DNA of 57,720 bases from a virus (IMGVR_UViG_3300009181_000083:1-57720); one strand, 5' to 3'; shown: positions 4,104 through 53,510, counted from the first letter of the stretch. Numbers and translations are program-made. The notes: a model not told the origin generated them from the sequence alone.

Positions 4104-4865
4104 ATGTATTCGGCTGAGCCGCTTTTTAAATCTCATTACAGTCTCGGTAAATCCGTCCTGACTTTGTCTAAGGCTGGAGAATCCGAGCCGGATGAGCCAA
4201 GTTCTGTTTTCGATATAGCGACAAAGCTTTCTCTAAACAAAGTCACACTCGTTGAAGATTCCATTTCAGGCTTCCTCGAAGCCTACAAGTCAAGCGAAGC
4301 GGCTAAGATGTCTTTAAGATTCGGGTTAAGACTTACGGTTTGTGATTCTATAGACAATAAAACCGCTGAATCTCGAGTGAGAGAGCATAAGATCGTTATC
4401 TTTATTAAGAATACGGACGGATATACAGATCTTATCAAAATTTCTACCGCTGCTTGCTCGCAAGGTTTCTACTACTACCCAAGGGTAGACTCCAAAGTGC
4501 TCAAAGACCTGTGGAATAACAAAAATTTACTGCTTGCTATTCCGTTTTACGATTCTTATATTTTTAAGAATAATCTAACTTACGGAGTTTGCGTTCCCGA
4601 CTTCAGCTTCTGCGATCCCATTTTTCTTTCTGAAGATAATAATTTGCCATTTGATTCTATTTTGAATCGCCGAATTAAAGAGTCTGCCGGATCGAATTCT
4701 AAAATTGTAAAGACTCAATCAATCTATTACGAAAATAAGGCTGACTTTGTAGCCTATCTCACTTTCAGGTGCATTTCCCAAAGGACGACTTTAAACAAAC
4801 CCAACTTAGATCACTGCTCTTCAAACGAATTTTGCGCTGAATCATTTAAGGAAAAATATGTCTGA
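4104..4865 (+). CDS. Stand-alone PHP domain of DNA polymerase III alpha with degenerate metal ligands
   Basis: FKSHYSLGKS (cf. HxHSxYSLLDG), FGLRL, IKNTDGYTDLIKIST, GFYYYPRVD match the DnaE N-terminal PHP domain. Confidence 0.85.
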   Translation: MYSAEPLFKSHYSLGKSVLTLSKAGESEPDEPSSVFDIATKLSLNKVTLVEDSISGFLEAYKSSEAAKMSLRFGLRLTVCDSIDNKTAESRVREHKIVIFIKNTDGYTDLIKISTAACSQGFYYYPRVDSKVLKDLWNNKNLLLAIPFYDSYIFKNNLTYGVCVPDFSFCDPIFLSEDNNLPFDSILNRRIKESAGSNSKIVKTQSIYYENKADFVAYLTFRCISQRTTLNKPNLDHCSSNEFCAESFKEKYV

Positions 4866-5496
4866 AGAATTAATGAGGTTTGATAAAACCAAAAGTCTTG
4901 TCTTTATCGATTGCGAAACTCTAAATCTATGTTTGAATTTTTGCCAGAACCTTCCTTGGCAAGTCGCAATGATTAAAACAGTAGGAGGACGTAAGACTGA
5001 CGAAAGAGACTTCCTCATAAAATGGGACACCGAGCTGAAGATATCTGAAGAAGCAAAGCGAATTACAAACTATCCAGAAGCAAAAATTCTAAGTCATGGC
5101 AAGAAATTCGAAGACGTCTTCCCTGAGATTGAAAACTGGCTCGAATCCAGCGACTATATCCTTGGGCATAATACTCTTCAGTTTGATATTTATTTAATTA
5201 AAGAAATGTATGCCCTGAAAGGCAAAAGGATGAATCACTTGGTTCATAAATTCATAGACACGAATTGCTTAGCTAAAGGCCTTAAATATGGTATTCAGAA
5301 AATGGAGAATGAACCATTAATAGAATATCAATATAAATTATCACACACCCGCAGGAAAGGCATTAAAACAAATTTACAAGCCCTAGGCAAAGATTATAGC
5401 ATAGAACATGATTACGACAACTTGCATAATGCAATTGTTGATTTAGAGTTAAACCTTAAAGTGTGGAATAAGATTAAATTCCAAATAGATATATGA
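4858..5496 (+). CDS. DEDDh 3'-5' exonuclease (DnaQ/epsilon-like)
   Basis: ExoI FIDCET, ExoII GHNTLQFD, IDT, ExoIII HNAIVD. Confidence 0.88.
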   Translation: MSEELMRFDKTKSLVFIDCETLNLCLNFCQNLPWQVAMIKTVGGRKTDERDFLIKWDTELKISEEAKRITNYPEAKILSHGKKFEDVFPEIENWLESSDYILGHNTLQFDIYLIKEMYALKGKRMNHLVHKFIDTNCLAKGLKYGIQKMENEPLIEYQYKLSHTRRKGIKTNLQALGKDYSIEHDYDNLHNAIVDLELNLKVWNKIKFQIDI

Positions 5497-27700: not shown

Positions 27701-28053
27701 ATCCCAGGTATAAAAATATATGGAGACAAACCGGAAATGTAAGAATCTGTTATGTCTGCAATGATCTGTATCGTCTCTTCGTAACTTTCCCCCTTTACTC
27801 CCGACGATATAAAAAACCTTGATTTAGTGAGGTTGCCTTCATTATCTGGCAACGTCCAAACTGTTCCAGTAAGGGCAAATGGATAAGTAATTATATCTTC
27901 CACTAGAAATTCTGGAAAGGCGTATCCATCTTCATTAACATTTAAATTTTCAAAAGTAGACACCCATAGACCGTAAGTGTTTTGTGTAACATTTAAATTT
28001 GGATCAGATAAAACTCCAGTTAAAAAATTTATATTATCGGTAACGGCACTCAT
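18769..28053 (-). CDS. Giant virion protein (tail fibre/appendage-like) with tandem beta modules
   Basis: Uninterrupted 3094-aa ORF in the tail operon; recurring (F/Y)-h-h-N-x-S modules; acidic C-terminus. Confidence 0.6.
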   Translation of the reverse strand: MSAVTDNINFLTGVLSDPNLNVTQNTYGLWVSTFENLNVNEDGYAFPEFLVEDIITYPFALTGTVWTLPDNEGNLTKSRFFISSGVKGESYEETIQIIADITDSYISGLSPYIFIPGISFSGKIYRRCEITGINISQFSNKELLVISGEDWQDTKLLISGNNLDFIYGYQDTGYSGYSNEVSTRYKFLYDDSKNSPVKNSFSFDPPSQVEEGSSFKYRVSRKSDPFGSFFPAETNANGQLLINLPNDEVSEQITSSVNYNFSTPKVISFSSDEVKTVLDQSDPCIKSGLDESVTGVKVSKAGSNLQIDLLATGSYSGIYRVNVVIQESSGNVGITKIGYVMSGYNASGIGSGIINLAFGSGVYPRTIQDGQSYNYTDFMTEAEALNQLKEQEEIKYASYLEDTTENIDEDQKFKNDLMINEDFAALNSNQESPPIKSFLSNFPLPKKIISKDYYTNYLNSGETYIITPISAYSIPIFVYCGNESLALGRAFGTQEVKLINPTALGLRIDEVSFCKGDSALDDYREAGEDVYTENGTVTRIPSDGIIKKTNYIDKEAWLNAINYFYTKNYVNSFTVYPTLAESSYSGFFAGALSKINQDIGGPKQNSSENSFLTNGGKVPRIFVEREIYTEPYNESQISEFNRSFTSGSKIAIGSKLTTTQNDRLYCVQSYGDVPNDPKSFFPAQNYNENLTFEKFLEHSGLSYSTGDSIGKLLFNPINDKKCLRVEYATGLNSTFSYNSYSGAVAWTGLNGAAISIANQDIKNYAYHLYSHTGTSDPLTFNKSNIKNNDPASVISGKAAVLKFSKKNFENALSTEFVDNTLFQATYPSIADTGLALVDPALIRFNIQIYKYELKPKNTTHQWSIFNKNPINDNNYGSKESAGLITPRFFEETPLETRNSSAVLFSFPNGPFTSKNHEGSPVTTAHITSLEEGLFENNIIVTEESKNVLSYESNCVLDFAHNNRLVKQLAPTNPESITLSKTRRLKVTKIKYNFYTKNLVIIGDAGSRNSIYNNGGWKYELQYKKKDPTDLVWKKVTESREFLIDEISCNFGVIPSEYLDFNQGVHFLSMVAFEVNLPLFLDDNDYEFKIVKYKRLGISTSSVEVIKKTNFIPIQASWSGNAACPRFDIYQKDTGNNLTLLRSELVLKTSSYAVPDVKQSYIDMGLANFGSLNYSGYYDIVVSGIMPSTAKVSSSLSGEYGFEVGDTSSDLKVNKIINLNTVTTAVLVSGVTYSPMLNFNNPESKNSTFEIDQNHSGYYFVTDSATSTLKGITGQAFEAYVANTGSLSCSVGGTSLISGYVAAISGTLPIATSGLQVLGSGSLSLNNIINNDVIYLKNNFTFLDPIDGKTFYLINDSASSITGLYNSINYSFTGGKTFRMTSAASALTTGLTFSNVNIQDDYIYSNAGLTNFDHLNLTLSSAVTDLPVYNASRNSLKINNVTVLAPDSFNFVTWSGANTPSGALKNYFDSIRIYLKGSEDNNLITLLKDDTEIIITKFLKDTSNAYYFLKDEAVNRDLNIKIINSSSTTFIPSQKQDFKLIVTRDANGINFKIIYASKNASVALNDDREQLIILKGDSAQEINLKDAGDLLYQNSFVYFVNKSSKDAIFTYGIEKTALSQNQIARIFLKDSEATVEILTQARSHFEFTIDPVTHLNSTINILNLDFCDAEINFPDVVNFTGQETFLICKNRLFPNKIDTSSLICPPDLLDNSSTDESNEFKNLGLNSMFLNVRKQSQNDTRPTLDRVWLTNRIGNYGKQNLNSVPQETTPDSHTAKTANYFYVNETGLSNFTLRDFYNRKSSYDGKIFFPKMQKIDIQSFDEKNSIVNLESRSLSFDYDPDGDINGRLEVLKTSDESVLSYESEKGSTAITFSTVLEMEQICANFAYDSVFEDTTNKTLAKNRLVRNGSSSTAIFPIYNKDEFFIAKTIADDTRTDVKNIYYIILGSETDVDAIIIPDAFGETDIVIKNSSSRSYPIKTLSDSAITMILPNQQIQLSYTSSWAFASNTDNADNSSDWRVIRFSNQDLEIDSDHPLKLIYPDKNNEIDTDEFLDKFIGNSLIAGLNTYQIIDVDSASTITPSVALRIYCYGRKAKTQVALAGRPYFVNAFYLYADFEGEIVKRNEFYFQGSVKPLTVIERQHEDLLKYSWNQTYISIPDVIFIPITSQLMTYYLPNLSQPLVEGGEILGETIHNKKIIFVNLVRANSSTPNQVVNYSDASTENLLNIDSLLVYQASKSNNEPITYFWTELTEDKPVVKTVYPTLKGVEGVSDTSDSIYTNGNEIVYLSNFDQFYISKNSFKSNTYENFYLYNSCGYSIRIKESGKKDLIFHDLAKFSKISIDQNGTFKKTNIAIGGLPSLIATTDGEEIKKKLKSGTIVKLITAETIVYKYNQVGTPVKIDIKNICTLDLFDLKEYAPNDKLFIYGSSRVNEAGLSFVPYDLTLLKVDELPDQKFYIHNAYSSFLTIFINGLTFTLAVGRTLEISKDGISYMESHSKGTFYISTKVTNKNYLSKSKINIFADALFDHDFDKGKYVDRISSQSNTLVNVAISLLQDSGGPPDIYANFFGYNALYNDGDNKKITYLISNNEQLINQKIGILNIRKPLISVSNAGHYIVNDNINDISVNVGSEIFLVNNSAKDVSVKLSSGQSLPPTLFRNTVLVINSSGGIRYLKKAKRRDEFYCVFNPKTMISITDSVSKNKIINRTKDILPIFYSFSSESPQSSYVKLLDKTGQSRFVRLSIRDYYNGIDIPTDSPENILAYEVGIGHEVIYKFLFFDPSELIYTLPGIENGSTYIVEADTNLFYNLTNINGNLFTKVTEDPYVKYNGKEYRDGETFIGVSVSNYEIKYPNYVKVAKIIQKLEKTFDKFEGQPDETIDPEITKEVVDKPKEGLALKEAIFDRKFGLRAELGGVEYWLPTNTSAFWQDSDFEKDIFTITEVFPLKSKSITTKDGQYVSFVECSMKKTNLREVISQWSITHNSALQFKYPVLNPGSLVIGIGNDWKPEHRQGLINQTVEDYNNVETLLEPIPEARLAQQAPSVNYLDIFITIEKLKPMPTVEFEDFSESEIIKLLNGKEIVEEDPIVEEDAIVEAEGE

Positions 28054-40258: not shown

Positions 40259-42136
40259 TTAAGTTTGCTCCTTCGCCATTAAAAATTTAAAAACTAAATC
40301 TACTTTTAAATTATAGTTATTATCTATAGATAATTTTAAATCATCTAGAAAATATGTTAAATCCTGTTGCTGTAAAGATGAGCTGGCGTATATTTTGGCA
40401 AAAATAGACAAAACCAATGGAGAGGACCCACTAAATAAATAACCGCTCGGTCCGTCAAGGATTTCAAATGTCAATAAGTCTTTTATTTTTGTAAATATTG
40501 AAGCGGTGGAGGTGTTGACTCCGTTGGCTGAACCGTCATAAAGCTGTTCTCTGTCTATTTTCATTTCTAAAGAAATATTTCTGGATCCTTGCGATAGTTG
40601 TCTTGTTTGGTATATTATTTCTTTTCCTAACAGCTTCGAAGAGGATCCTATTAATTTAATAGTTGAGAATTTATTTACTGGATCTGTACAAGTTTCGGTG
40701 GTCGTTAGTTTTCTCACTATCACATTAGCGCCAGAAGCCCTTAAAGTTGGAGAATTTGAATAGGTTTTAGAATAAGAAGTCTCCACTCCGAACTTCGCAA
40801 AAGTCATTGTCGAAGCTGTTTTAATTCCAACGTAAGAATCGCTTAATCCAGAGATTTTTTTATAATAAGAATCTATTTCACTAAGATCATCACTGTCTAT
40901 TATTGCTTTAACTACGCTTATTTTATTTATAAAATCTTTTATTTTATTAGTGTAAAGTCTGATGGACCCTTCTTTAGAGACTTCGTAGACTCCAAGGCTG
41001 TCTTTTTTTAAAAGTATGGAGTAAGTATGTATGCTTGTCACATTAGAGTAGGCTGGATTCGTTGTAAATTTTATTTCGTAACCAACTTCTGAGGTCACAT
41101 CTGTTAAATCTTTGGTGATTGATATTGGATTAGTTTGTAGAGTGTTCGAGCCGCTATATTTTGGAAGGACCCCCTGAATCCTGCTAAAAGAAGCATTGCA
41201 TCTAGTATAAGCGTCTGATAAATTAGTATTTAATTTTGCGACAGCGTTATTTCTTGCTAATGTGTATGAAACCCCCTTCCCTTTGATTCGCCCTTTTTCA
41301 GACACCTCTATTGATCCGTCGTCTTTGTAGCTCACTTCTGTGGTTATCGTTTCGGATGTGGACGCCCCATTATTTTGCGAGAAGACTGTGTAGTTTTTAG
41401 AATAAGCGAATTTATAATTAATTAAATCAACAGATTGTTCCGTGAGAGACGATCCGTAATCACTAGTAGAGTTTTGAAAATCAGCAGAACTATAAAGAGA
41501 ATATATCGAAGACAAGCTTTGTAAAGTTTGGGCAAAAAAACCATTAGCCACCGCCACTGCGGCGATTGTAAGGTTCGCGTCTAAAATAACTTCTCCCGGG
41601 TCGTATTGAAAACTAATACTATGAGACGCTTCAAAATTTCCATCTTCCCCTAATTTGAAAGAAAAATCTTCTGAAAAATCTTTTAATTTATACCATTTCC
41701 AAAGCTCATTACTCTGGTTTAGAGTTTTAACGTCGCTTGGCAAATTAGCGTCCGCAAAAGTGCTATCGTCGTCTACTTTTATAATTTCTAATTGAATTGT
41801 AAATTTAGAAAGATTAATTGCATTTTCATCGAAGTTTACTGAAGTAGGAAAACTGAAAGAAATAAATCTAGCTTTACCATACAAAACGTCATTTAGTTTT
41901 AAATCAACAAAATCAACAGAATTAGCTAAAAGATTTTTGACGTCCTTAAAATGCTCGGTGACCGATTGCGCAACGCCTTTTTGCGAAAACAAACCTTCTA
42001 AAGATATGACTTCTTTCCTTCTGTAATTAAATGCTCCCATTTTTTCATTTTGCATCGAGTAACTCAAGAGAGTAGCTACTGCAAAACTTATCGACGAGTT
42101 GTCAAATTTTAATACTGTTTCTGATGCGAATGACAT
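40259..42136 (-). CDS. Distal tail (Dit-like) protein
   Basis: Immediately downstream of the TMP; beta-rich with tube-like repeats. Confidence 0.5.
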   Translation of the reverse strand: MSFASETVLKFDNSSISFAVATLLSYSMQNEKMGAFNYRRKEVISLEGLFSQKGVAQSVTEHFKDVKNLLANSVDFVDLKLNDVLYGKARFISFSFPTSVNFDENAINLSKFTIQLEIIKVDDDSTFADANLPSDVKTLNQSNELWKWYKLKDFSEDFSFKLGEDGNFEASHSISFQYDPGEVILDANLTIAAVAVANGFFAQTLQSLSSIYSLYSSADFQNSTSDYGSSLTEQSVDLINYKFAYSKNYTVFSQNNGASTSETITTEVSYKDDGSIEVSEKGRIKGKGVSYTLARNNAVAKLNTNLSDAYTRCNASFSRIQGVLPKYSGSNTLQTNPISITKDLTDVTSEVGYEIKFTTNPAYSNVTSIHTYSILLKKDSLGVYEVSKEGSIRLYTNKIKDFINKISVVKAIIDSDDLSEIDSYYKKISGLSDSYVGIKTASTMTFAKFGVETSYSKTYSNSPTLRASGANVIVRKLTTTETCTDPVNKFSTIKLIGSSSKLLGKEIIYQTRQLSQGSRNISLEMKIDREQLYDGSANGVNTSTASIFTKIKDLLTFEILDGPSGYLFSGSSPLVLSIFAKIYASSSLQQQDLTYFLDDLKLSIDNNYNLKVDLVFKFLMAKEQT

Positions 42137-42142
42137 AATTTT

Positions 42143-45100
42143 TTATCTTTTTGCAATTCTTGGACCCATTTTACCCATTTCTTTCGGGAATTTAGATTGT
42201 AATATATCTAAAACACCATCCATCATTGAGTCTGAATTTCCTTGATATGATCTTTCGTCATTTATATTAACTATGTTTGAATTAGAAACATTTGGAACCA
42301 TTCCTCCTGCAAATGATGCTATTCCATTTTTCATAGCTTCTGTGATTGCAGCTGTAAATTGTTCTGTTGAGAAATTAGGAATAAATCCTGCACTAAATCC
42401 TAAAGATTGTTGTTGAGCTGGGTTTAATATAGCGTGAGTCTCTGATGGGTTTTTAGGTTTCATATTTGCACCGGCTGGACCGAACATTCTACTATATACT
42501 TCACTGGCCGGAACTTCTATTTCAGCGCTGTTGATTACGGCATTTTTATACACGCTAGAACGCATCGGAACGGCGTCTCTATGTCCAGCGTAACTTGGGC
42601 TAGATAAAACCGCACGTTTTTCTTGCATGAACATGGGAGCGAAGCCTCTCGCGTAATTATTGATCTTCCCACTCCTAGCTGGTATAAACCCATTGGAATA
42701 ACCATTTAAAAGTTTTTCAAGCTCCGTCATGCTCTCTATCTGATTTTTATTTATTGATTCTTGTTCTTTGTTTAGCATTCCCGCAGCTTCAACCCCTTCG
42801 CTTGTCAGCCCGAGCCCTTGCGGAGTCATCGCACTTAAAGGATTTCCTGCCACGCTCCTTAGCGTAACTTGATTAGACTCTCCCAGAGCTGCAAAAGTGC
42901 GGGTAAGTGCAGGATTTTCTGGCGTCGTGGCGTTTAACAGGGCTCCGCCCGCAGCTTCCTTATCTAACCTTGCCAAGGATTCTTGTTTTATTAGAAGAGC
43001 GTCAGCCTTTTCTCTTTGCGAATCTGACATGTCAAGGTAATTCAGCATAATTTGCGAATCCGACTTTCCCGGGAACGTTGCCCTAGTTAAGCTGCCGTCT
43101 TTCTCTAGGAACGCCGTCATCCTTTGCTGCCTATCATTTAGGACTTTAGATTGCTGTTCTCTAATAGCGGGCATTAGAGTAGGATCTACTGATGCAAGGC
43201 TGGGATCTCGCATGTATTCTCGCAACATGAGGTCTTTCTTGTCTTTGATTTCCAACGCGCTTTGTTCAGCATTTGGACGTTGATATTCGTCAAGAGGGGC
43301 AGCGAATCCCGTTCGCGCTTTCACGGCGTCAGCCATTAACCCAAACGCTTTCTCTCTCTGCTCGCTTGATAAGAGAGCAAGTTCGCTGTCGCCAGACGGT
43401 CTAAGTGACTGCTCCTGCCGATCATATATGACGGGTTGGTCCCATAACCCACGTTTTTTTACGTGATTTATAATCTCGTCAGATGTTGAGGTAATTAGGT
43501 CTGGATCGTTTGGACTAGGGTTATTGCGCAAGCGTTCCATTGCGTAACTTAATTGGGCCGTTTTCTTGGCTTGTTCTTTTGCTTCTTTTTCTTCCTTTGG
43601 GTGGGGGGTGAGTCTGTCGATCTGAGCGCCAAATGCCCCCATTCCAAGAGCCGAGAAGGTGTTTTCGTTTGCGTGTTTCTCCATCTCTTGGGTTTTTGCG
43701 CGATTCAACCTTTCGGAAAAGGTCTCGCCGAGGCTGGGCCTGTCTCCATGGAAGTCCGTTATCCTCGCCAAAAGTGCTTCGTCGTTATTGTCCATAGGGG
43801 ATATGCCTTGTCTCACGGAGATGTCCATACTCTTCTTTTTTAGGACGGTATCTTCAACAGGTAGCTGTCGATACATGCTAAGAATCGCAGCTTCTTTATC
43901 CGACAGGTTGAGATTTTCTCGGTTTTTGACAGCCTTAGCCGTTCGAAAAGCTACTACGTTGGCTTCTATTCGATTATACTCGGTCTTATATCTTTCAAGA
44001 CTAGCGATTTTGGCGTCGAAATAAGCTGCGTCGCTCTTCGACATTGATAAATATTGATTTAAACGTTCGTTGTCCGACTGGGGCGACGATTGAGGAGTAT
44101 ACATAGCTGCTAATCGTGGATCGTGTCTCAATTTATTAGCAGCCACTCTGTAGCTATCATGCGGTGCTCTCGTTTCCGTTATGCGAGGTATGTCCACAGG
44201 GCTATCCAATACATCTCGTTTCACGCTTAGAAAGCGTTGCTTGCGCTCGTCAAGTAGTGCCTTCTCCTCTTCATAAACAGAATTTTTACGATTCGGAATA
44301 AACTTTACTTCACCACCATTTTCCCAATCTGTCACCTTTTCGAAAGCGTTAGGCGCCAGCCCCCTCAAGATTTCATTTTCTTTTGCCGCCACTTCTATTC
44401 CAGTTAGCTGATCCGCACGTTCAGCTCGCAATGCCGCAGCGCTCTGCTTGTTCGCAGACAGTCTTTCAGATCTTCCCTCTTCATAATTGGGTCGACTTCT
44501 AGCCCATTCGGTTTCAAACTCGATATCATCTTTTGTACGAATCTGACCTCCAGGAAAACGTTTGGAAATCTTACGAGACTCAGGGTTTCTTGCTTCTGCC
44601 AGCAACCGCTCATTGAGACGTGTTTTCCAGTTTGCATTCTCGTCTTCTCCTTGCATGGACATCGTCATTGCCCCAAGTTTATCACCTAAGCCAATTCCCT
44701 CTTCAATCATCCCCCCCACCGCATAACCCGTGTCCCAAACGCCCTTTGCCAATAGAATTCCGCCGATGATCGGACCAACTACCGGAATGAAAGGCAAAGC
44801 CGTATAAAGAGCTCCCCAGGCGGCAGCTTTCAAAGCCTCAGACTGGGCATCTTCTTTGCTAATAAGTCCTTTGTTATAATCTTTATTTATATCGTATAGA
44901 GAGGAGAGGGTGTGAAGTGCGCCCGCAGCTATGCCGATCTTAGCCATGGGGCCCATACCTCCAGCACCACCTCTAGGGCCACCTTTAGGCGTCTGACCTC
45001 CAGGCGCTTTAGTAAAGCGACCCCGAGCGTCCCTCAACGGCCCTTTGCCTCCAGATCCCTTACTCCCAGGAGTCTTAGCTCCAGAAGTCTTACCTCCAGG

Positions 45101-48100
45101 AGCCCCAGCATTTGCAGGACCACCCGCTCTATTCTGAAATCTATATTGACCGTAAGAAACTGCAAAATTGATCGCCTCATTACGCACCAATTTTATTAAT
45201 TCTTCAGTTACCTTTTCGCCCTTCTCAGCCTCTGTTAGCTTATTGTCGTTATAAATGTCATAGATGTTCTTACCCCCAAGAGCTATGTCACCGCCCATGA
45301 ACAATTTAGAATAACCGCCCATCTTATAACCCGGCCTGCTTCCCGCCTGACCAGCTTTATTCTGAGACTCTACTGAGGAAGTCTTATTTCCAGGTTTCTT
45401 AGCTCCAAAGTAGTCGTATCTTCCCGTCTTTGGATTAAAAATGTCCTGACCTCCGGGTTTGACAACTTTACTTTGTTTTGAACCAGCCTTCGAAGGCTTT
45501 TTAGCCGGTGAACTAAGAGGAGCTGCGGGCGGAGTAGTTGTTGATGGTGAACTAAGAGGAGCTGTAGGCGGAGTAGCTCCGGATGGTGAAGGAGTCCTTG
45601 ATGCAGCGGATAGTGATGAAGTAGGACTTTGTCCAAAGACATTTTTAACTAATGTTTGCGACAGATTTCCGCCCATGTATCCTGAAGACCCTCTCAAATC
45701 ACTTGGATTGACTTCGAAAACAATAGTGCCAACTTTGCCTCTTCCGCCAGAGTAAAATTCCCTCGACTTAACGCCAGCATTTTTTGCCGCTTCTAAAGTA
45801 GTTCCACCAACATCAACTCCGAAGAAGGCATTTTTTATCCCTTTCTGTTTCACTGAGGCTCTTATAGCGTGAACAGCGGAACTTTCCGCTGCTTTTTTAA
45901 AAGATTGAGTCATTTTAATAGCTTCATCTTTGGCAAGCCCAGCCTTCATATAGGATTGAATCGACGCCTCAGCGGTAGGATCGGCTTTAGTGGCTTTTAA
46001 AATTGTTCCACCTTTTATTATTTTTACATTTCCTTTATCATCTACCGCGACATGAACTCTTAACTCGTTGTAATAAGTGGGAACTTTTGCTTGAGTAAAA
46101 AATCCACTTCCAGTGCCTTTGCTATATTGATTTATGATAGAGGCGGTGTCGGAAGTTGTTAATTTACCTCCCCTTCCAAATACTCCTCTACTTTGAATAT
46201 TTGACTCTCCAAATGCTGTTTTAACAACTATATCTTCTCCTCCTGTTTTTTTATGAATTTGGGTCAATAAATTTTCTGGAGTAAGTTTTCCTTGCCTGTT
46301 TAGTCTAGATAGAATTCCATCTATTGGTTGAGATCTAGCTACCCCCGGAAGCTTTAATTCATCAAGTTTCGTTACTTTAGGATCGTTTAGTCCAAGAATA
46401 GATTTTCCTTTACCGCCGGTTTGCCCGAGTTCTGTAGATATTGTTCTTGATCCTTTCGGTAAATCGTTAGAGTTTATTAAAGCAGTTTCTACTGAGCTAT
46501 CCGGATTGACTTTTCTAAAACCGTCACCGATGTGATCCCAAACATACAATTTTCCAAGCGATGCTTGTTTCCTAGCTAAATTTGCTTTCTTTTGACCAAA
46601 AGCTGCAAAATTTGGAATATAACCATCAGCCAATCCAATACTAGCCAAACCTCTCGGTTCATCAATTGTGTTTGTTACTGCTAATCCAAAAGGATTACTT
46701 GATTGTTTTAATTTGTTGCTTTGATCTACTCTAATTGAATTAAATGGTACAAATTCAGACTCTCTGCGAATTGCGTCTCTTAAAGGGCTTTTAAAATTTG
46801 GAATGAACCCACCAGCCTTGCCCATGTCCGCCGCCGCTGCTTGATCTGCGCTAGACGCCTCAGGACCTCCGGTAAAATAATCTGAAACATCACTGGCCAT
46901 ATTGCTAAAATACGACATGACACCATCCATAAAACTGCCGTCCTTTTTCTTTTCCGAGTCTGGGTCTAGTCCTTCGACTATAATCTTCGCTTTCGTTATA
47001 GTTAGCCCTCTCTCGAATGACTTTCCTAAAGAAGTTTCAAATTCGTCCATTTTGGTTTTCGTGTCCTTGCTTGACTCATTTATTAAAGCGTCAGCCTGCG
47101 GTTGCATAGCTTTTTCAGATGCTCTAAGTCGCTGATCATCAGATCTTTTTTCCATGTCATCTTGCGTATTGCTCTGTGAATAATCAGCTATTGCCTGCTT
47201 TACTTCATCGGGCATTTTACTCAACCCAAGGTGAGCCTGCGTCTGTATTTTACCTATCGCATATAGATCTTGCGAATCATTAGCTTTCGCTCGCATAGCT
47301 CCGCCCAGCTGATAGTCACCCATTCGATCAGCCCGCCTAGCGTCTCTAAGTAAAGACTTCCTCAAGTCTCTCGCTCTTAAATTTGCACCGACTTCCGTTG
47401 CTCTGTCAAACGCTCCTTCACCGAAATTCAATCCTGCATATTTTTCTTTAACCCCTTTCGCGAAATTAACATATCCAGCATCAGCTGTATTTTGAGATCC
47501 AAATCGGTTTCCCAATGCATACTGCATGGACGCTCTCGCAGTCGGTTCGTCAGACGCCCTTTTGCCTTCGTAACTTAAAGATGCCGCCATTCCTCCTCCA
47601 AAAACCAACCTTCGTTTTAAAGCTAAAAGTGCAAGATCTTTCTTTTTTTTCTCATCTGCTTTTGATTCGATTACTTGCATTGCGTTTTGCGACTGTTTAG
47701 TTTCAGAAAGAAGTGCCTCTAGCTCGTTTTTTTGTTTAGGATCTTTAGTTTGTTTTATACTATTTTTCAGTGACGATTCCAGCTCTTGACTCGGACCTTG
47801 ACCAATAAAACGACTAAGCCCTGGCATTTTTTCAGCTTTAGAAGAAAGCATTGCACCAAATCTTGCTCTTTCCTGCCCTGATTCCATTGCCACGTCCACG
47901 TTTCTCCTCGCGTCTATTTCGGACTCTGGTCCGAAATTAGATGCGTAATCAACCAAATCATTAAGATAATCACCTCTAGACGATTTTTTTATGGCTCTTA
48001 ATTTTTTATTTTGTTCATTCTGCATTCGAATATCTGAGGATGGTCGCCTGAGATTCGTTAATTGATTTTTTGTTAGCTCTTCTTTCTCGCTTATCTTTTC

Positions 48101-51100
48101 ATTCGTCTGTAAAAAATTAATAAATGGCGTTATGAGTCTCCCTTTAGTCCCGGCGAGAACTTTGTTAGCGTCTCCTATGCCAGCTTTCTTCAGGGCCTCT
48201 CCAAGATTTTCAGGCGTTAAATTTTTAACGTCCAACTTGCTCATGTCAGCTTGACTAGACCAATCTGAGAATAAAGACTTTATCGCCTTTGGTTTTCTTT
48301 TTTTGTCATCTAATTCTAAAAACTTAATAGAAGCATCATTAACAACTTTATCTTTAGTCGCTGACTCTACCGCATCTGCTAAAATTGTTTGTTTTTCCGC
48401 TGATGTCCGTGCCGTCGCCAACTTCATTGCCGCTTGTGGATTACTTTTATCCATGCTTCTCATTAGCTCTGCTTGTTTTTTACCTAATTTAATAAGGACT
48501 TCTGGACTAACGCTCGGGTCTAAATAAGCATTGTTTAAGTCTTCAATGGATTGAGCTAATTGTCCTGCATTTTGAGTAAGTTTATTGAATTTATCAGCAG
48601 TGTTATCTTTTACTTTTTGAAATTGATCTGATCTTACGTCAGCTTCTGTTTGACTAGCTCCTGAAAAACCAGATATTATAGCTGGTGCGTTTTGCGCGAT
48701 AGCCATACCCACATTTGCAGCTTTTCCCCATCCAGTTCTACCACGAGCAAATCCTGAGACGATATCCATCCCAGCCATACCTAAGGGAAGCCCTCGTTGC
48801 ACGGCAGCAATCGTACCTACGTTATTTTGATTCGCTACCCCGCTCAACATCATTGACGCGCCTCCAATTAAACTTGATCTCATCATCCCACCCATCATGC
48901 TCGGACCTTCTTGAGGTTGGTAGTTACTCATACTTCCGTGCTTCACTCTGAACGCTGCCATATCAGCCAGTCGTTCATCTTTCCTTTTCTGCTCCCACCA
49001 ATCTGATATCTTATTGAAATTAGGAATGAAACCTTTAGACTTAATCAACCCAGCGCCTTTTTGCATCGAAGCTGAATCTGACAAAGCATTTTGAAGTCCT
49101 CCATGATCATTTATAGCTGATTCGAAAGTCGGCTGACTGGAATTACGAACATGAGGAAACGGTTCGGTATCGAATATTGCTGTGCCATTTCCAGCTTCTG
49201 ACTCTAGTTGTTTTACTTCATCTAAATAAGCAAAATTGGGGATAAATCCTGCATACTTGTTCCGAGATCTCAGTACTCTTCGAGCTTTTTGCTTTAGCGA
49301 CTTGGCGGATGTGGACTTTGCATATTGTTGTCGAGATCTTTGAGTAGGCGTGGCTTGTTGATTTGTAGAAATAACCTCTATTATATTTCTACTATCTATA
49401 TCTCTACCATTTGAATCTATGGTTAAGTCTTTGCGTTTTTGGACAACTTTCTTTAGTCCACTAAGCATATCTGTTTTTATTTGTCCGATGTTGACAGACC
49501 CGCCTTGTAATTTTACTTGTCCTAAAAATAATTCATTTTCTTTTTCATTTTTTTTATTTTCATGTACCGTTTTGATAAAGTAATCATAGCCGTTAAAATT
49601 TGCTTTAAATAGACCGCTGTCGATTATTGAGTCGCCTCCACCTATCAACGTTGTTTTAAAACTGTCGAGAGCTTTACTCTCTTGAGAAAGCCTTTCCTTA
49701 AGGATATCTTTATGGTTTTGGGTTTTTTGGGTTTCTGAAACGCCTTCCTTTTTCGTCTCAGTCATTAACTTTTCGATGTTGCGTAGCGACACGTCTGCTT
49801 GCTCGTTGTCCGCATACGTATTGTATAGCATCTTCGCCCCGTGATTCATTAGGAAATTAGGAATAAAACCTCTACTAGAATAAGGATTAACTCCTGTTTG
49901 TTTAATTGCATTTTCTCGATGCATTTGCCCAGCTTTTGAACTTTCAGGCGGATTAATAAACGGTTGAGAAAACCCAGGAACGTATTTGACCTTCTCTGAG
50001 GTGTTCATTATTCCACCGATAGATGATGGAGTTTCCACCACCGCTCCCGGAGAGTATCCTCCACTTAGAGCTCCTGCTCTTTCTGCGTCTTGATCTGCTT
50101 TGGGAATGTAGCCCATTGCTCTTCTTTTTTTAAGTCCAGTTGTCGGACTTACTGTAAAACCACCTTGAGCTAATGTGTTTGCTAATGCAGAACTTAAAGT
50201 GGCATTTGTTTGCAGTTGAGCGGCTTGTTGCTGCATTATAGTTAGCAATGCTTGAGCAGCAGTTGTTTGACTTATTTGCCCACTGACTATTTGTTGTATG
50301 ATTTGCGGTTGATTATTAAGTGTAGAGGTGATTAAACTTTGTAAATTAAGAATATTCTGAGAAGCGCTAGTTACTCCCAAAAGGCTTCTTACAGCCTCTG
50401 TTCCAAATGTAAGTAATTTTTTACCAATAGCGAAAGCTAAAGCTCCGACGATAACGATTCCGGGCCCTGCTATCGCAGCTCCGAGTCCCTTAAGCAGTGA
50501 TTCGCCAAATGACCGACCACTTTTCGCTCCTTCTTCATCGCCTTCTTTTTTATCAAATACATTTAAAGTTTTATTTATTATTGCTGTTCCGGTCTTAACT
50601 AGCGGAGTCAACAGCGGGGTGGCAATTGCCGCTCCTTTTTGTTGTAGATTAGCTTTAGTTATTTCTATTGTAGCGGTGAGACTTTGATTTAAAGCTTCGT
50701 TTTTATCAAAAGCTTGATCTGTCGCAGAGTTCGACGCTTGTAAAGCTCTAGCATAAACACCATTAGATCTGGAAAGGTCATTAATTAAAGAATTTAATAT
50801 GTTGATTTGGAATATGCCGCCAAGTAATTCTGCTGTTTTTGCTTTTTCTGTTTGACTTAAGTTTTTTGTGGCGTCGGTGTAGTTTTTTAATATACTTATA
50901 CCATCTAAGAAATATCCATTTTGATCTTTTACCGCAACTCCGATTTCTCGTAATTGGTCTATAACTTCCGGCCTCTTCATTCTAGTGAAGATTGTTTTTA
51001 ATGCGTTTCCGATAACCGCACCGCCACGACCTGTCGTTTGTTGAGCGGCGGTGATGGATGCGACTAATTGATCAATTGAGACTCCAGAATCTTGAGCGGA

Positions 51101-51739
51101 ACTACCGACTCGGCTCAGTGCTTGAGCTAAATCACTCGAACTAACCGCAAATTGAGAATCAACTTGAACTAATTTATTTACGATTTCTGAAGAAGTTAAT
51201 CCAGATTTATTAAAACTGTTTATTGCGGTTGTTAAAGCTGTAACCGACTCAGCTGCTCCGAGACCCGATATCCTACTTAGAATTAGAGCGTCATTGGTTC
51301 TCTTCAAGGTGTCTTCCATCGACAAACCTTGCCTAGCGAATTCTTTCGCAGCTTCAGCAACTGCACTAAAAGAAGTTGCAGTATTTTTAGCTATTGAAAA
51401 TAGAGAATCTCCAAACGCTTTCAGCTGCCCTTGAGATTGACCTAAAAAAGTATTTAATTCCGTCAATTCTTTATCAACTAACATCATGGATTTAGCTGCT
51501 TCAGACATAGCCTTAGAAACTAAATAAATAGCCCCAGACGTTACTCCGAAAGCTGCGACGCGGGCTGAAGCCGCTGCCATAGACTTGTCAAACATTGCTA
51601 GATCGCCAGTTATACGACCCAATGGCTGAGAAAAATTTACTTTGGCCGTTATCGGCTTGCCTGCGGCGGTTTGAAGAGCGCTTAATTGAGCTTGAGCCGC
51701 TGCCGTCGAAAGATTTAAATTAATATTATAAGTTGCCAT
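42143..51739 (-). CDS. Tape measure protein (TP901-like core) with G[FY]IPNF repeats and an embedded ATP-grasp domain
   Basis: N-terminal TMP core (LFSIAKNT..EAAKEFARQG..LTTAINSF..DLAQALSRVGSSA..GNALKTIFTR); follows the tail tube and chaperone genes; 3198 aa. Confidence 0.92.
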   Translation of the reverse strand: MATYNINLNLSTAAAQAQLSALQTAAGKPITAKVNFSQPLGRITGDLAMFDKSMAAASARVAAFGVTSGAIYLVSKAMSEAAKSMMLVDKELTELNTFLGQSQGQLKAFGDSLFSIAKNTATSFSAVAEAAKEFARQGLSMEDTLKRTNDALILSRISGLGAAESVTALTTAINSFNKSGLTSSEIVNKLVQVDSQFAVSSSDLAQALSRVGSSAQDSGVSIDQLVASITAAQQTTGRGGAVIGNALKTIFTRMKRPEVIDQLREIGVAVKDQNGYFLDGISILKNYTDATKNLSQTEKAKTAELLGGIFQINILNSLINDLSRSNGVYARALQASNSATDQAFDKNEALNQSLTATIEITKANLQQKGAAIATPLLTPLVKTGTAIINKTLNVFDKKEGDEEGAKSGRSFGESLLKGLGAAIAGPGIVIVGALAFAIGKKLLTFGTEAVRSLLGVTSASQNILNLQSLITSTLNNQPQIIQQIVSGQISQTTAAQALLTIMQQQAAQLQTNATLSSALANTLAQGGFTVSPTTGLKKRRAMGYIPKADQDAERAGALSGGYSPGAVVETPSSIGGIMNTSEKVKYVPGFSQPFINPPESSKAGQMHRENAIKQTGVNPYSSRGFIPNFLMNHGAKMLYNTYADNEQADVSLRNIEKLMTETKKEGVSETQKTQNHKDILKERLSQESKALDSFKTTLIGGGDSIIDSGLFKANFNGYDYFIKTVHENKKNEKENELFLGQVKLQGGSVNIGQIKTDMLSGLKKVVQKRKDLTIDSNGRDIDSRNIIEVISTNQQATPTQRSRQQYAKSTSAKSLKQKARRVLRSRNKYAGFIPNFAYLDEVKQLESEAGNGTAIFDTEPFPHVRNSSQPTFESAINDHGGLQNALSDSASMQKGAGLIKSKGFIPNFNKISDWWEQKRKDERLADMAAFRVKHGSMSNYQPQEGPSMMGGMMRSSLIGGASMMLSGVANQNNVGTIAAVQRGLPLGMAGMDIVSGFARGRTGWGKAANVGMAIAQNAPAIISGFSGASQTEADVRSDQFQKVKDNTADKFNKLTQNAGQLAQSIEDLNNAYLDPSVSPEVLIKLGKKQAELMRSMDKSNPQAAMKLATARTSAEKQTILADAVESATKDKVVNDASIKFLELDDKKRKPKAIKSLFSDWSSQADMSKLDVKNLTPENLGEALKKAGIGDANKVLAGTKGRLITPFINFLQTNEKISEKEELTKNQLTNLRRPSSDIRMQNEQNKKLRAIKKSSRGDYLNDLVDYASNFGPESEIDARRNVDVAMESGQERARFGAMLSSKAEKMPGLSRFIGQGPSQELESSLKNSIKQTKDPKQKNELEALLSETKQSQNAMQVIESKADEKKKKDLALLALKRRLVFGGGMAASLSYEGKRASDEPTARASMQYALGNRFGSQNTADAGYVNFAKGVKEKYAGLNFGEGAFDRATEVGANLRARDLRKSLLRDARRADRMGDYQLGGAMRAKANDSQDLYAIGKIQTQAHLGLSKMPDEVKQAIADYSQSNTQDDMEKRSDDQRLRASEKAMQPQADALINESSKDTKTKMDEFETSLGKSFERGLTITKAKIIVEGLDPDSEKKKDGSFMDGVMSYFSNMASDVSDYFTGGPEASSADQAAAADMGKAGGFIPNFKSPLRDAIRRESEFVPFNSIRVDQSNKLKQSSNPFGLAVTNTIDEPRGLASIGLADGYIPNFAAFGQKKANLARKQASLGKLYVWDHIGDGFRKVNPDSSVETALINSNDLPKGSRTISTELGQTGGKGKSILGLNDPKVTKLDELKLPGVARSQPIDGILSRLNRQGKLTPENLLTQIHKKTGGEDIVVKTAFGESNIQSRGVFGRGGKLTTSDTASIINQYSKGTGSGFFTQAKVPTYYNELRVHVAVDDKGNVKIIKGGTILKATKADPTAEASIQSYMKAGLAKDEAIKMTQSFKKAAESSAVHAIRASVKQKGIKNAFFGVDVGGTTLEAAKNAGVKSREFYSGGRGKVGTIVFEVNPSDLRGSSGYMGGNLSQTLVKNVFGQSPTSSLSAASRTPSPSGATPPTAPLSSPSTTTPPAAPLSSPAKKPSKAGSKQSKVVKPGGQDIFNPKTGRYDYFGAKKPGNKTSSVESQNKAGQAGSRPGYKMGGYSKLFMGGDIALGGKNIYDIYNDNKLTEAEKGEKVTEELIKLVRNEAINFAVSYGQYRFQNRAGGPANAGAPGGKTSGAKTPGSKGSGGKGPLRDARGRFTKAPGGQTPKGGPRGGAGGMGPMAKIGIAAGALHTLSSLYDINKDYNKGLISKEDAQSEALKAAAWGALYTALPFIPVVGPIIGGILLAKGVWDTGYAVGGMIEEGIGLGDKLGAMTMSMQGEDENANWKTRLNERLLAEARNPESRKISKRFPGGQIRTKDDIEFETEWARSRPNYEEGRSERLSANKQSAAALRAERADQLTGIEVAAKENEILRGLAPNAFEKVTDWENGGEVKFIPNRKNSVYEEEKALLDERKQRFLSVKRDVLDSPVDIPRITETRAPHDSYRVAANKLRHDPRLAAMYTPQSSPQSDNERLNQYLSMSKSDAAYFDAKIASLERYKTEYNRIEANVVAFRTAKAVKNRENLNLSDKEAAILSMYRQLPVEDTVLKKKSMDISVRQGISPMDNNDEALLARITDFHGDRPSLGETFSERLNRAKTQEMEKHANENTFSALGMGAFGAQIDRLTPHPKEEKEAKEQAKKTAQLSYAMERLRNNPSPNDPDLITSTSDEIINHVKKRGLWDQPVIYDRQEQSLRPSGDSELALLSSEQREKAFGLMADAVKARTGFAAPLDEYQRPNAEQSALEIKDKKDLMLREYMRDPSLASVDPTLMPAIREQQSKVLNDRQQRMTAFLEKDGSLTRATFPGKSDSQIMLNYLDMSDSQREKADALLIKQESLARLDKEAAGGALLNATTPENPALTRTFAALGESNQVTLRSVAGNPLSAMTPQGLGLTSEGVEAAGMLNKEQESINKNQIESMTELEKLLNGYSNGFIPARSGKINNYARGFAPMFMQEKRAVLSSPSYAGHRDAVPMRSSVYKNAVINSAEIEVPASEVYSRMFGPAGANMKPKNPSETHAILNPAQQQSLGFSAGFIPNFSTEQFTAAITEAMKNGIASFAGGMVPNVSNSNIVNINDERSYQGNSDSMMDGVLDILQSKFPKEMGKMGPRIAKR
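45507..45590. repeat. 39-bp in-frame tandem duplication in the TMP Pro/Ser linker
   Basis: ggtgaactaagaggagctgcgggcggagtagttgttgat / ggtgaactaagaggagctgtaggcggagtagctccggat, followed by a partial third copy; encodes TPP(T/A)APLSSP. Confidence 0.85.
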
Positions 51740-51790: not shown

Positions 51791-52786
51791 CTACGCGCCG
51801 TGCATTTCGATGAAATCTTGCATTGTTAACGAACCGCCTTTTTTCTTAGCGAATTCTTCAAGGGAAGTAGCTCCACCACCAACCATGTTTTGTAGTTCTT
51901 CCTTAGTTGCTCCAACATAACTTGTTCCACCTTCTCGATTCAAATCAACCTGGCGTGAGCTAGTGGATAACGAATCATACCATTCTATCATTTTATCAGG
52001 ATCCGCCATGATATCCGACGGTGGATTTACGTTTTCTTTTCTAGACTCCATCAGAGACTTAAAATATCGTCCTTGAGAAAATAAATTAACTTGCAAAATC
52101 GTTAAATTTGTAACATGTGTCCCGTAAAATGACGGAATATCTTCAGAGGCTAAGCTGAATAAATTAATAAAAAAATAACACGCGCAAATCCTTTTGATTT
52201 GATTATGTGAAAATTCTGCATAAAAGTTATTTAAGACCTTAATCAAACTAGAAATATCACTTTGAGTTAAATTATCAAACTCTTCTCGGGAGAATAACTG
52301 TTGAGAAAGCTGTTCATCTTTAAAAAAAGAATTAAAAATAACCAAGTCGTTCATTTTTTGAGAAACAAAATCTTCAACGCAAAATCCCACGCACTCTTCT
52401 TTTTCGTCTATTAATTTTTTTAATTTCAATTCGGTTTCGGCTTTTTTTTGCTTTGTTTCTTTAATTTGTCTTTTGATGATTAAATTTTTCAGAAACATTT
52501 CTAAGTCGGAAATTTCTTTTTCTAATTTTTCTATTTCTATTTCGTTTTCTATCGGCCAGTAACCTTCTTTCAACAGGAGCTGTAGCTTATCTTCTCTTTC
52601 TAAAAGTCCGTTCTTTTTTGCGATGCTAAAAAAAATAGAACTTTCTCCCGCATGTCTTCCATTGTTTATTTCTGAAAAATGTTTAATAAAAATGGGTTTC
52701 TCCATGTATGTTGACACAGAAAAACCCATTACTATTTCTTGATATAGTCTTTTAAAATGATTTATTTTTTGCTCGGAATCATTCAC
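51791..52786 (-). CDS. Putative tail assembly chaperone
   Basis: Directly upstream of the TMP; coiled-coil segment; GTG start. Confidence 0.55.
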   Translation of the reverse strand: MNDSEQKINHFKRLYQEIVMGFSVSTYMEKPIFIKHFSEINNGRHAGESSIFFSIAKKNGLLEREDKLQLLLKEGYWPIENEIEIEKLEKEISDLEMFLKNLIIKRQIKETKQKKAETELKLKKLIDEKEECVGFCVEDFVSQKMNDLVIFNSFFKDEQLSQQLFSREEFDNLTQSDISSLIKVLNNFYAEFSHNQIKRICACYFFINLFSLASEDIPSFYGTHVTNLTILQVNLFSQGRYFKSLMESRKENVNPPSDIMADPDKMIEWYDSLSTSSRQVDLNREGGTSYVGATKEELQNMVGGGATSLEEFAKKKGGSLTMQDFIEMHGA

Positions 52787-52787
52787 G

Positions 52788-53510
52788 TTAAGGCGCCGAA
52801 GCCTTGATATCTTCTTTAGATAAACCAGAGTTTATCCTACCTATGTAATACGATCCTTTTTCAATTACTTTTGCTAAAAATTCGTCACCAGAATCTTCAA
52901 TTGCATTAAATCTTTCCGTTCTCTGATCGAAAGTGCCTTCGCCAAAGATGCAAGATTGAACACCATCCTTATCTGAATAAATTAAATTTAAAACAAACCA
53001 AAGATTAAGCAAATCATTAGCTCTTTTCTCAGCGGTATTATCGAATAAAGAAGATTGTAAATTTTCATAATCAAAGATTTTTTGTCGAAGGTCGTCGTAT
53101 TCAGTTTTAAGGGCAGAAATCTGCAACTCTTTTTCAGCGTCGGAAAGCTCCGCGACAAGCTTGATCGACTCCATGTCCACTTCAAGTTTTATTGCTCTTG
53201 AATAATTATCCGAATGAACTTTTTTCTCTTCACTCGAGGGAGTCAGACCTTCTTGTTGGAATTTTCTCAATAGGTAGTTCTTCGTAACCAAACCGAGTCG
53301 GATTCCTTCGGAGACTTTGACAGAATAAAAAATACTAGCCTCATCTTGCATTTTCCTCGTCGGGTTCAGAATAGAAAACTTTTGAGGAACTTTTTGTTCC
53401 ACTTCTTTGGAAATCGAAATCTCCTCACCAGCTTCGTTTTTTTCCGTTGTTGTTTCTTTAACTTTCTGAAGTTTATCTACTTCGAAAGTGAATAGCCATT
53501 TTTCTTTCAT
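52788..53510 (-). CDS. Putative tail assembly chaperone
   Basis: Lies between the tail tube and TMP; acidic and coiled-coil rich. Confidence 0.55.
   Translation of the reverse strand: MKEKWLFTFEVDKLQKVKETTTEKNEAGEEISISKEVEQKVPQKFSILNPTRKMQDEASIFYSVKVSEGIRLGLVTKNYLLRKFQQEGLTPSSEEKKVHSDNYSRAIKLEVDMESIKLVAELSDAEKELQISALKTEYDDLRQKIFDYENLQSSLFDNTAEKRANDLLNLWFVLNLIYSDKDGVQSCIFGEGTFDQRTERFNAIEDSGDEFLAKVIEKGSYYIGRINSGLSKEDIKASAP

Follow-up and report, generated by a model that had tools for sequence, protein, structure and literature searches.

We analysed a virus contig of 57,720 bp (IMGVR_UViG_3300009181_000083:1-57720), referred to below in its full length as the window, and in particular its gene for a tape measure protein (TMP) of 3,198 amino acids (aa). 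Behind a core of about 540 aa this protein is an array of independently evolving cassettes. The cassettes are bounded by ten copies of a short peptide with the consensus [AS]-x-G-[FY]-[IV]-P-N-F-[AS], called the fence peptide here; approximately zero copies are expected, and none was found in the other genes of the contig. Sequence comparison indicates that related phages exchange cassettes at the fence peptide. Such exchange, exactly at the peptide, makes it probable that the tail delivers prefabricated proteins to the host. The most likely reading, to which we assign a probability of about 0.4, is that the fence peptide is a maturation (cleavage) site and the TMP is a polyprotein.

The gene and its core are located as follows.

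42143..51739, minus strand: whole TMP gene; the open reading frame (ORF) is translated into 3,198 aa plus stop; TP901-family TMP by its domain content
50114..51739, minus strand: N-terminal core of the TMP, aa 1-542, with the PhageMin_Tail domain and the hydrophobic segment aa 413-447

By its sequence matches the gene product is a TP901-family TMP. The Pfam domain PF10145 (PhageMin_Tail) was found at aa 117-306 with 100.2 bits, the gathering cut-off being 33.2 bits, and eight PHROG families of TMPs match the protein at aa ~14-520 only (best E-value 2.7e-49). The core domain is followed by the hydrophobic segment at aa 413-447 (Kyte-Doolittle peak 2.14). The full-length identity of the core to its relatives is 41-96%. 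Beyond aa ~540, no match was observed in Pfam, PHROGs or NCBIfam; nine segments of the TMP compared with Pfam (E<=1) and eight compared with NCBIfam (E<=0.1) produced sub-threshold noise only.

The ten copies of the fence peptide are listed below in the order of translation.

50096..50113, minus strand: GYIPKA, aa 543, with lysine at the asparagine position
49853..49870, minus strand: GFIPNF, aa 624
49232..49249, minus strand: GFIPNF, aa 831
49016..49033, minus strand: GFIPNF, aa 903
46793..46810, minus strand: GFIPNF, aa 1644
46607..46624, minus strand: GYIPNF (DGYIPNF), aa 1706
42674..42691, minus strand: GFIPAR, aa 3017
42629..42646, minus strand: degenerate copy GFAPMF, aa 3032
42371..42388, minus strand: GFIPNF, aa 3118
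42287..42304, minus strand: degenerate copy GMVPNV (in SFAGGMVPNV), aa 3146

The string G[FY]IP occurs at aa 543, 624, 831, 903, 1644, 1706, 3017 and 3118, the first bases of the glycine codons being 50113, 49870, 49249, 49033, 46810, 46624, 42691 and 42388, and six copies are exact matches to G[FY]IPNF. A preliminary description of this DNA, made from the sequence alone, had listed the same ten motifs; all of them were found within approximately 10 nt of the positions given there. When the protein was shuffled 2,000 times, G[FY]IPNF was never observed (mean 0, maximum 0), and G[FY]IP was observed with a mean of 0.03 and a maximum of 2. A six-frame scan of the 57,720-bp contig yielded 11 loose matches, ten of which are the TMP copies. 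The eleventh, at position 2746 on the plus strand, lies right before the stop codon of its frame. A possible partial copy within the TMP, KFIPNR at aa 2480, is absent from a relative (P0002) that is 87% identical in this region, and was treated as a chance match.

Relatives of the part behind the core were collected using aa 530-3198 as the query. This search produced 158 proteins, of which the best 120 were analysed. Nearly all of these 120 are proteins of 2,000-4,600 aa containing PF10145, and all 120 have at least two strict copies of the motif. Among 142 further proteins found by a search with a module profile (see below), at least two strict copies are present in 125, one copy in 11, and none in six; many short proteins in this set look like fragments. 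The consensus given above was derived from 544 sites. The asparagine is present in 495 of them, the aromatic residue [FY] following the glycine in 497, [IV] in 534, and phenylalanine or tyrosine after the asparagine in 534. The proline is present in all 544, but this position was fixed by the search pattern. The final phenylalanine is followed by alanine in 350 sites and by serine in 76 (426 together). The position two residues before [FY] is not aromatic; it is mainly occupied by glycine (112 sites), lysine (106) or serine (100). A scan of viral contigs with aa 540-1000 of the TMP revealed no relatives.

The codons of the fence peptide are not conserved. The ten copies of the window differ in synonymous positions, and 84 GFIPNFA sites on other viral contigs have 45 different 18-nt encodings. 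Since synonymous codons vary freely, selection acts on the peptide and not on a DNA recombination site.

Between the motifs, the TMP contains the following long segments.

49250..49852, minus strand: cassette S1, aa 630-830, a swapped slot without Pfam or NCBIfam match
46811..49015, minus strand: segment S2, aa 909-1643, a conserved Met/Gly-rich, helical block without family match
45560..46606, minus strand: cassette S3a, aa 1712-2060, a candidate ATP-grasp-like domain starting about 3 aa after the motif
42692..45559, minus strand: rest of cassette S3, aa 2061-3016, Gly/Pro/Ser-rich, with a hydrophobic segment at aa 2306-2336 and a long charged helical part

The preliminary description had proposed that the motifs partition the TMP into cassettes, and that exchange of inter-motif segments between relatives be used to check this. 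Such exchange was indeed observed. Relative P0002 is 96% identical to the TMP of the window over aa 1-635 and 87% identical over aa 828-3198. Unrelated sequence is found only between the motifs at aa 624 and 831, where aa 636-827 are replaced. The replaced cassette S1 is a singleton among 536 cargo segments (defined below), and in the five closest relatives this slot is filled by members of four unrelated families. Segment S2, in turn, is retained in relatives P0002-P0015 at 26-56% identity and belongs to cargo cluster 0. The alignment with P0003 covers aa 1-1711 and aa 3027-3198, and the same holds for P0004 and P0007; thus the 1,305-aa block behind the motif at aa 1706 (aa 1712-~3020) has three different replacements in these three proteins. 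In P0010, the domain at aa 1703-2034 stands behind a motif of its own, in a different order.

The same pattern is seen in the sample of relatives. Internal alignment ends lie not more than 5 aa from a motif in 255 of 438 cases (119 relatives), compared with 5% of positions, although this enrichment is partly due to module-to-module matches, which are motif-bounded by construction. The ends pile up at the short module between the motifs at aa 1644 and 1706: 61 alignments end within aa 1710-1719, and 55 begin within aa 1640-1649. BLAST clustering of the 536 inter-motif segments that are 110 aa or longer, taken from 244 proteins, gave 148 clusters, including 93 singletons; single linkage has probably merged too much into the largest one, which has 205 members. 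The surroundings of the gene are stable: in loci L002 and L004 two upstream and four downstream genes are collinear with those of the window at 40-67% identity, while the TMP itself is mosaic.

Several features of the third cassette may be mentioned here. The G+C content in the interval 42001-46000, corresponding to this cassette, is 0.44-0.47, compared with ~0.32-0.39 for most of the contig (contig average ~0.36). This could reflect either the Gly/Ala/Pro-rich composition of the encoded protein or a foreign origin. The region aa 2061-2336 (~44730-45559) is of low complexity and rich in Gly, Pro, Ser and Thr (G 17%, P 8%), and ends in the strongly hydrophobic stretch aa 2306-2336. This stretch would give the protein a second element active on membranes, well away from the core. 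A further observation concerns relative P0005, encoded on an 80,757-bp contig. This protein of 2,054 aa has no TMP core, and only 17 of its residues precede a motif. It may come from a TMP that was split immediately ahead of a fence peptide, or its start may be miscalled.

Many copies of the fence peptide are arranged in pairs. In the window the pairs 543/624, 831/903, 1644/1706 and 3032/3118 are spaced by 81, 72, 62 and 86 aa, and successive pairs are separated by segments of 207, 741 and 1,311 aa. The pairing around short modules, noted in the preliminary description together with the long segments between them, is confirmed by these four pairs. The modules and the C-terminal tail are as follows.

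49853..50113, minus strand: module M1, type B, aa 543-629, from GYIPKA to GFIPNF
49016..49249, minus strand: module M2, type C, aa 831-908, from GFIPNF to GFIPNF
46607..46810, minus strand: module M3, type A, aa 1644-1711, from GFIPNF to GYIPNF
42371..42691, minus strand: module M4, type B, aa 3017-3123, containing GFIPAR, GFAPMF and GFIPNF
42146..42370, minus strand: C-terminal tail, aa 3124-3198, including SFAGGMVPNV

The profile built from the post-core module (M1 type), when compared with 1.84 billion representative proteins, matched 644 of them at E<=1e-3, each match standing for a protein cluster at 50% identity; 444 matches reached E<=1e-10, and 109 reached E<=1e-30. Most of the matching proteins are 2,000-7,700 aa long and contain the module at approximately aa 540-640. 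Untrimmed, with their motifs, 165 of the 166 short modules form one BLAST cluster. When the motifs are trimmed, the 166 modules split into groups of 69, 58, 26, 6, 3, 3 and 1. Group A (69 members) includes M3 of the window, group B (58 members) includes M4 and the post-core type M1, group C (26 members) includes M2, and group D has six members. The hhalign probability between the trimmed types A, B, C and D does not exceed 2.7%, and a single family of short modules was rejected. By this clustering, the short modules of the window are of three conserved types. The family consensus sequences of the three main types, RE...yNT.de, E...yNsAE and LE...RNsSQ, all retain the early glutamate and the later N-x-x-(x)-E/Q pattern that had been pointed out in the preliminary description. 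The best local match between types A and B (hhalign) coincides with the Asn-Glu stretch, and a very distant common origin of the module types is possible.

Type B modules are found before aa 700, behind the core, in 47 of 58 cases and within 120 aa of the C-terminus in the remaining 11. Module M4 together with the C-terminal tail is 74-88% identical to the corresponding region of P0003, P0004 and P0007 and, besides the core, is the best conserved part of the TMP. In view of this location of type B and of the conservation of its C-terminal copy, the array may have arisen by duplication of a C-terminal module, with cargo placed between the copies. Of 261 family proteins, 14 have a homologue of the window-type tail, and in each of them it forms the C-terminal end. 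An earlier suggestion, that the modules are amplified C-terminal modules of the FAxGG type, is thus borne out in part: M1 and M4 belong to one family (type B), and the last copy of the motif, SFAGGMVPNV, overlaps FAxGG. On the other hand, the short modules form several families, only 49 of 1,192 family motifs overlap [FYM]A.GG, and profile comparison reveals no homology to gpH of phage lambda. A monomer model of M1 made with AlphaFold2 has a mean predicted local distance difference test score (pLDDT) of 53.9, with both motifs below 50, and the fence motifs are predicted to be unstructured. Pairing of the two M1 motifs as a clasp has no support in this low-confidence model. In a comparison of the module profile with sequences from the PDB, the best match (E-value 2.3) was to an immunoglobulin-like tail protein and was taken as a chance match.

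At least one cassette resembles an enzyme. Cargo domains in the TMP had been assumed in the preliminary description, and the cassette S3a (aa 1712-2060) looks like an ATP-grasp ligase in the structural comparison. The AlphaFold2 model of S3a is poor (pLDDT 59, alignment of six sequences). Nevertheless, when it was compared with the PDB using Foldseek, all 21 hits at E<=1e-3 were ATP-grasp enzymes, including tubulin tyrosine ligase, PurK, D-Ala-D-Ala ligase and biotin carboxylase domains, with template modelling scores (TM-scores) of 0.22-0.33; RimK appeared at rank 50 with an E-value of 2.1e-3. In a VIA-align comparison, the top 50 structures all had the ATP-grasp fold, with Z-scores of 6.6-8.5 and three of them at Z>=8. 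The residues K129, E181, R183, D265, E298 and N300 (numbering of S3a) are invariant in the six sequences and lie on matching strands of the model. Among them may be the ATP-binding lysine and the D...E-x-N magnesium-binding residues of the ATP-grasp superfamily. Language-model look-alikes of S3a in the Atlas include viral clusters of RimK-type ATP-grasp proteins, which may serve as a lead only. No match to S3a was found in Pfam (E<=1), NCBIfam (E<=0.1) or PDB sequences, no stand-alone homologues were observed among proteins of 191-611 aa, which was the size range searched, and a scan of viral contigs with this cassette revealed no relatives. Another cargo domain was found in relative P0010, where the Pfam domain DUF7178 (aa 658-877) fills the space between the motifs at aa 650 and 890.

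Because the fence peptide is constant, is predicted to be unstructured, and is selected as a peptide at the junctions of a mosaic protein, it probably acts as a short linear recognition motif that is the same whatever the neighbouring cassette. A constant connector of this kind would let cassettes be added, dropped and exchanged without breaking the protein. We further infer recognition of the peptide by a partner, cutting, and arrival of the cargo in the host. In the reading that we prefer, the TMP would be made as one chain and loaded into the tail lumen, the chain would be cut at the fence peptides during or after tail assembly, and the resulting separate proteins, an ATP-grasp-type ligase among them, would leave the tail one behind the other. 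Each junction would have one site, as viral polyproteins do, and the cargo would be freed with near-native ends. The small residue after the final phenylalanine and the preceding phenylalanine or tyrosine would fit a protease site. Also in favour of cleavage, the motifs closely follow the limits of domains: the ATP-grasp-like domain seems to start about 3 aa after the motif at aa 1706, and DUF7178 lies between the motifs at aa 650 and 890.

Several observations weigh against cleavage. No protease could be recognised in the contig with Pfam and PHROGs, though the contig looks partial. Many fence peptides are double, with a conserved module of 55-90 aa between the copies, which is left unexplained by a simple cut-site model. 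Both the conserved asparagine (495 of 544 sites) and the proline, which the search pattern fixed, would be just as compatible with a docking peptide. A split of the gene at the motif was considered and dropped: in other phages none of the 84 bona fide sites coincides with a gene boundary, and no example of the pieces as separate gene products was seen; five more pattern matches, located in short closed frames, had been set aside in this count as chance matches. No tblastn match to aa 514-3198 of the TMP was found in 50,697 records of cultured or deposited phages. Finally, homology to the processed TMPs pb2 of phage T5 and gpH of phage lambda was rejected by profile comparison, only short strings being shared. 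In the comparison of the module with the T5 pb2 site, the hhalign probability is 0.1%, the alignment falls elsewhere, and the likeness comes down to a three-residue string; in the comparison with the C-terminal region of gpH, the probability is 0.3%.

One possibility is that the fence peptide is a docking handle, bound by an assembly factor of the phage. Candidates for this factor are the putative tail assembly chaperones encoded upstream and the inner surface of the tail tube. The cassettes would be held unfolded for loading, and the chain would remain intact. The candidate genes are located as follows.

51791..53510, minus strand: two conserved upstream genes, 240 aa and 331 aa, at the usual position of tail assembly chaperones

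Binding of the lambda G/GT chaperones to the TMP is established. Disorder of the motifs, as predicted here, is characteristic of short linear motifs, and a handle of this kind would be constant beside variable cassettes. Both upstream genes are conserved and keep their order in L002 and L004, with identities of 65-67% and 47-50%. Moreover, the TMP is always one reading frame, all 84 sites being far from gene boundaries. However, the spacing of the motifs is irregular, from 15 to 1,311 aa, whereas chaperones are thought to coat the ruler evenly, and the upstream proteins match no chaperone family. A complex prediction for the two proteins and M1 gave a score of 0.01 without control runs and is evidence neither way. 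On balance docking to a phage factor seems possible but rather unlikely. It is still less likely, in our opinion, that the peptide mimics the client motif of a host envelope prolyl-isomerase (PPIase) chaperone of the SurA, FkpA, PpiD or PrsA type, recruited after ejection of the TMP so that the cassettes stay soluble or unfolded while they cross the envelope. The pattern G[FY][IV]PN[FV] contains the YIPN-plus-hydrophobic core of the peptide WEYIPNV, and the window itself has DGYIPNF and GGMVPNV. The phage-display peptide WEYIPNV binds the P1 domain of SurA with a dissociation constant (Kd) of 1-14 uM and opens the chaperone (PMC11401910 and PMC7195389, citing Bitto & McKay 2003 and Xu et al. 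2007), and genome injection by phage HK97 requires the periplasmic PPIase chaperone FkpA (PMC5099701). Repeated weak sites would give avidity, as described for SurA clients. Yet this likeness was noticed after the fact and is based on one selected peptide. Of the SurA-type pattern Ar-X-Ar-X-Pro, only the second part (aromatic, nonpolar, proline) is found in the TMP motif, with [FY] in 497 and [IV] in 534 of the 544 sites and the proline fixed by the pattern, while the position of the first aromatic residue is occupied by G, K or S. In addition, the nearest cultured TMP cores come from phages of Gram-positive bacteria, which have no SurA. A scan of genome contigs with the 240-aa neighbour protein revealed no relatives and hence gave no clue to the host. 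If this mimicry were real, the phage would use the host envelope folding machinery to keep the cargo train unfolded and moving, and the dependence of HK97 injection on FkpA, long unexplained, would gain a general sequence basis.

Two further explanations do without a binding partner. The motif may be just a tolerated joint with a tight Pro-Asn turn, which persists as recombination between the copies makes mosaics. Breakpoints do occur at the motifs, and mosaic phage genes are known to have short conserved sequences where their parts join. However, with synonymous sites varying freely there is little DNA identity to recombine on, and a mere joint would not keep seven near-invariant residues across 644 clusters that are more than 50% divergent, so that this explanation appears slightly less probable even than host mimicry. 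The least probable explanation is self-cleavage, in which the invariant asparagine would attack its own peptide bond with the help of the conserved glutamate in the neighbouring short module, a mechanism of the asparagine peptide lyase type. Lyases of this class include the coat proteins of tetraviruses and nodaviruses and YscU/FlhB, and in tetravirus capsids the self-cleavage occurs at Asn-Phe with a catalytic glutamate. In agreement with this, asparagine is present in 495 and the following phenylalanine or tyrosine in 534 of the 544 sites, and the early glutamate and later N-x-x-(x)-E/Q are kept in the three main module types. Yet many motifs lie between two long cassettes without an adjacent short module, the module is not predicted to fold alone (pLDDT 53.9) and has no homology to a solved structure (best E-value 2.3), and the first copy in the TMP has lysine instead of asparagine.

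In the remaining part of the contig, the replication genes occupy 1-12 kb on the plus strand, and the minus strand contains about 45 kb of large structural genes, most of them without a recognisable family. No capsid, portal or terminase genes were recognised among the neighbour proteins with Pfam and PHROGs, and the contigs of relatives reach 197 kb; the 57.7-kb contig is therefore probably part of a larger phage genome. The neighbours of the TMP gene in the structural block have no match to known tail families in Pfam and PHROGs. The role of the 240-aa and 331-aa proteins as tail chaperones is suggested by their position; they have no match in Pfam, PHROGs or NCBIfam, and in the Atlas the 331-aa protein matches only unnamed viral clusters. 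The two genes abut, with the stop codon of one at 52788 and the GTG start codon of the other at 52786 in a different frame, the second frame being open for about 15 more codons upstream. A programmed frameshift like that of lambda G/GT is conceivable; no frameshift signal linking the genes has been established, and no search for slippery sites was made. The structural block contains a second giant ORF (3,094 aa, 18769-28053, minus strand) without Pfam or PHROG match, flanked on both sides by ORFs of 900-1,200 aa that also have no match. A DnaE-type DNA polymerase is apparently split (4104-8063, plus strand) into a 253-aa ORF, corresponding to positions 62-294 of phrog_405, and an 856-aa ORF, corresponding to positions 319-1090. 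An ORF of 212 aa annotated as a polymerase exonuclease subunit lies between the two parts.

Tape measure proteins are rulers that also make a channel for DNA, and a few of them bear one enzyme. In a clade of uncultured phages, represented by the 644 protein clusters, the ruler has become a carrier of modular build whose parts are joined by a standard connector. Should this connector be cut, the tail would serve to deliver a set of proteins that can be programmed, in the window one with an ATP-grasp ligase, and the connector could be used directly to load foreign proteins into phage tails or tail-like injection systems. Should it instead dock to a chaperone of the phage or the host, threading of very long, partly globular chains through a tube of ~4 nm would become testable, and the peptide may show why some phages depend on envelope chaperones of the host. 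In both cases the motif provides a simple search key for cargo domains, the present sample alone yielding 148 sequence clusters with 93 singletons. Enzyme-bearing TMPs and TMP processing are already known (T5 pb2, lambda gpH, P23-45 gp96, and TP901-type proteins with cell-wall hydrolases). A literature search of limited coverage (motif strings, TMP with cargo, polyprotein, ATP-grasp) produced no paper describing a standard connector peptide that fences exchangeable TMP cassettes.

Comparison with these systems shows both common and distinct features. In phage T5, the TMP pb2 undergoes a single cut after R1127, which separates the ruler part, with its hydrophobic stretch, from the enzyme part; the tail retains both pieces (Linares et al. 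2023, PMC10038345). Like the TMP of the window, pb2 combines a ruler part and an enzyme part, and it is a precedent for cutting. Its site, SFVPR/AEGG...GEHGTEVVTP, loosely resembles M1, GYIPK-A...GGYSPG...NTSEKVKYVP. However, the residue before the cut in T5 is arginine, whereas the corresponding position of the fence peptide is asparagine in 495 of 544 sites. Moreover, pb2 has one site and no array, and is not known to exchange cassettes. Lambda gpH is processed to gpH*, as cited in the same source (PMC10038345). Near its C-terminus two short Gly-rich motifs (FATGG ... YATGG) bracket a module of ~45 aa, as in the window, whose last copy, SFAGGMVPNV, joins the two motif types. Unlike the fence peptide, the motif of gpH is a different one, is not amplified along the protein, and has no cargo between the copies. 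The peptide WEYIPNV, which binds a chaperone of unfolded envelope proteins, shares with the fence peptide an aromatic residue, Ile/Val, Pro, Asn and a hydrophobic residue; in contrast to it, this peptide was selected in the laboratory, and nothing in the fence peptide corresponds to its first aromatic residue. In Thermus phage P23-45, the 5,002-aa TMP gp96 has a virion RNA polymerase as its N-terminal part (Chaban et al. 2024, PMC10770324). It is thus a giant TMP that takes an enzyme into the host within the ruler, as the TMP of the window probably does. Its enzyme is, however, a single N-terminal fusion, and the passages of that paper that were searched make no mention of a repeated fence peptide, cassette exchange or processing. 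The cores of TP901-family TMPs from SPbeta-like phages, Brevibacillus phage Sundance and others are ~24-27% identical to that of the window. Some of the TMP genes in this family are annotated as lytic transglycosylase or lysostaphin-like peptidase, and thus enzyme domains are known in the family to which the TMP of the window is assigned.

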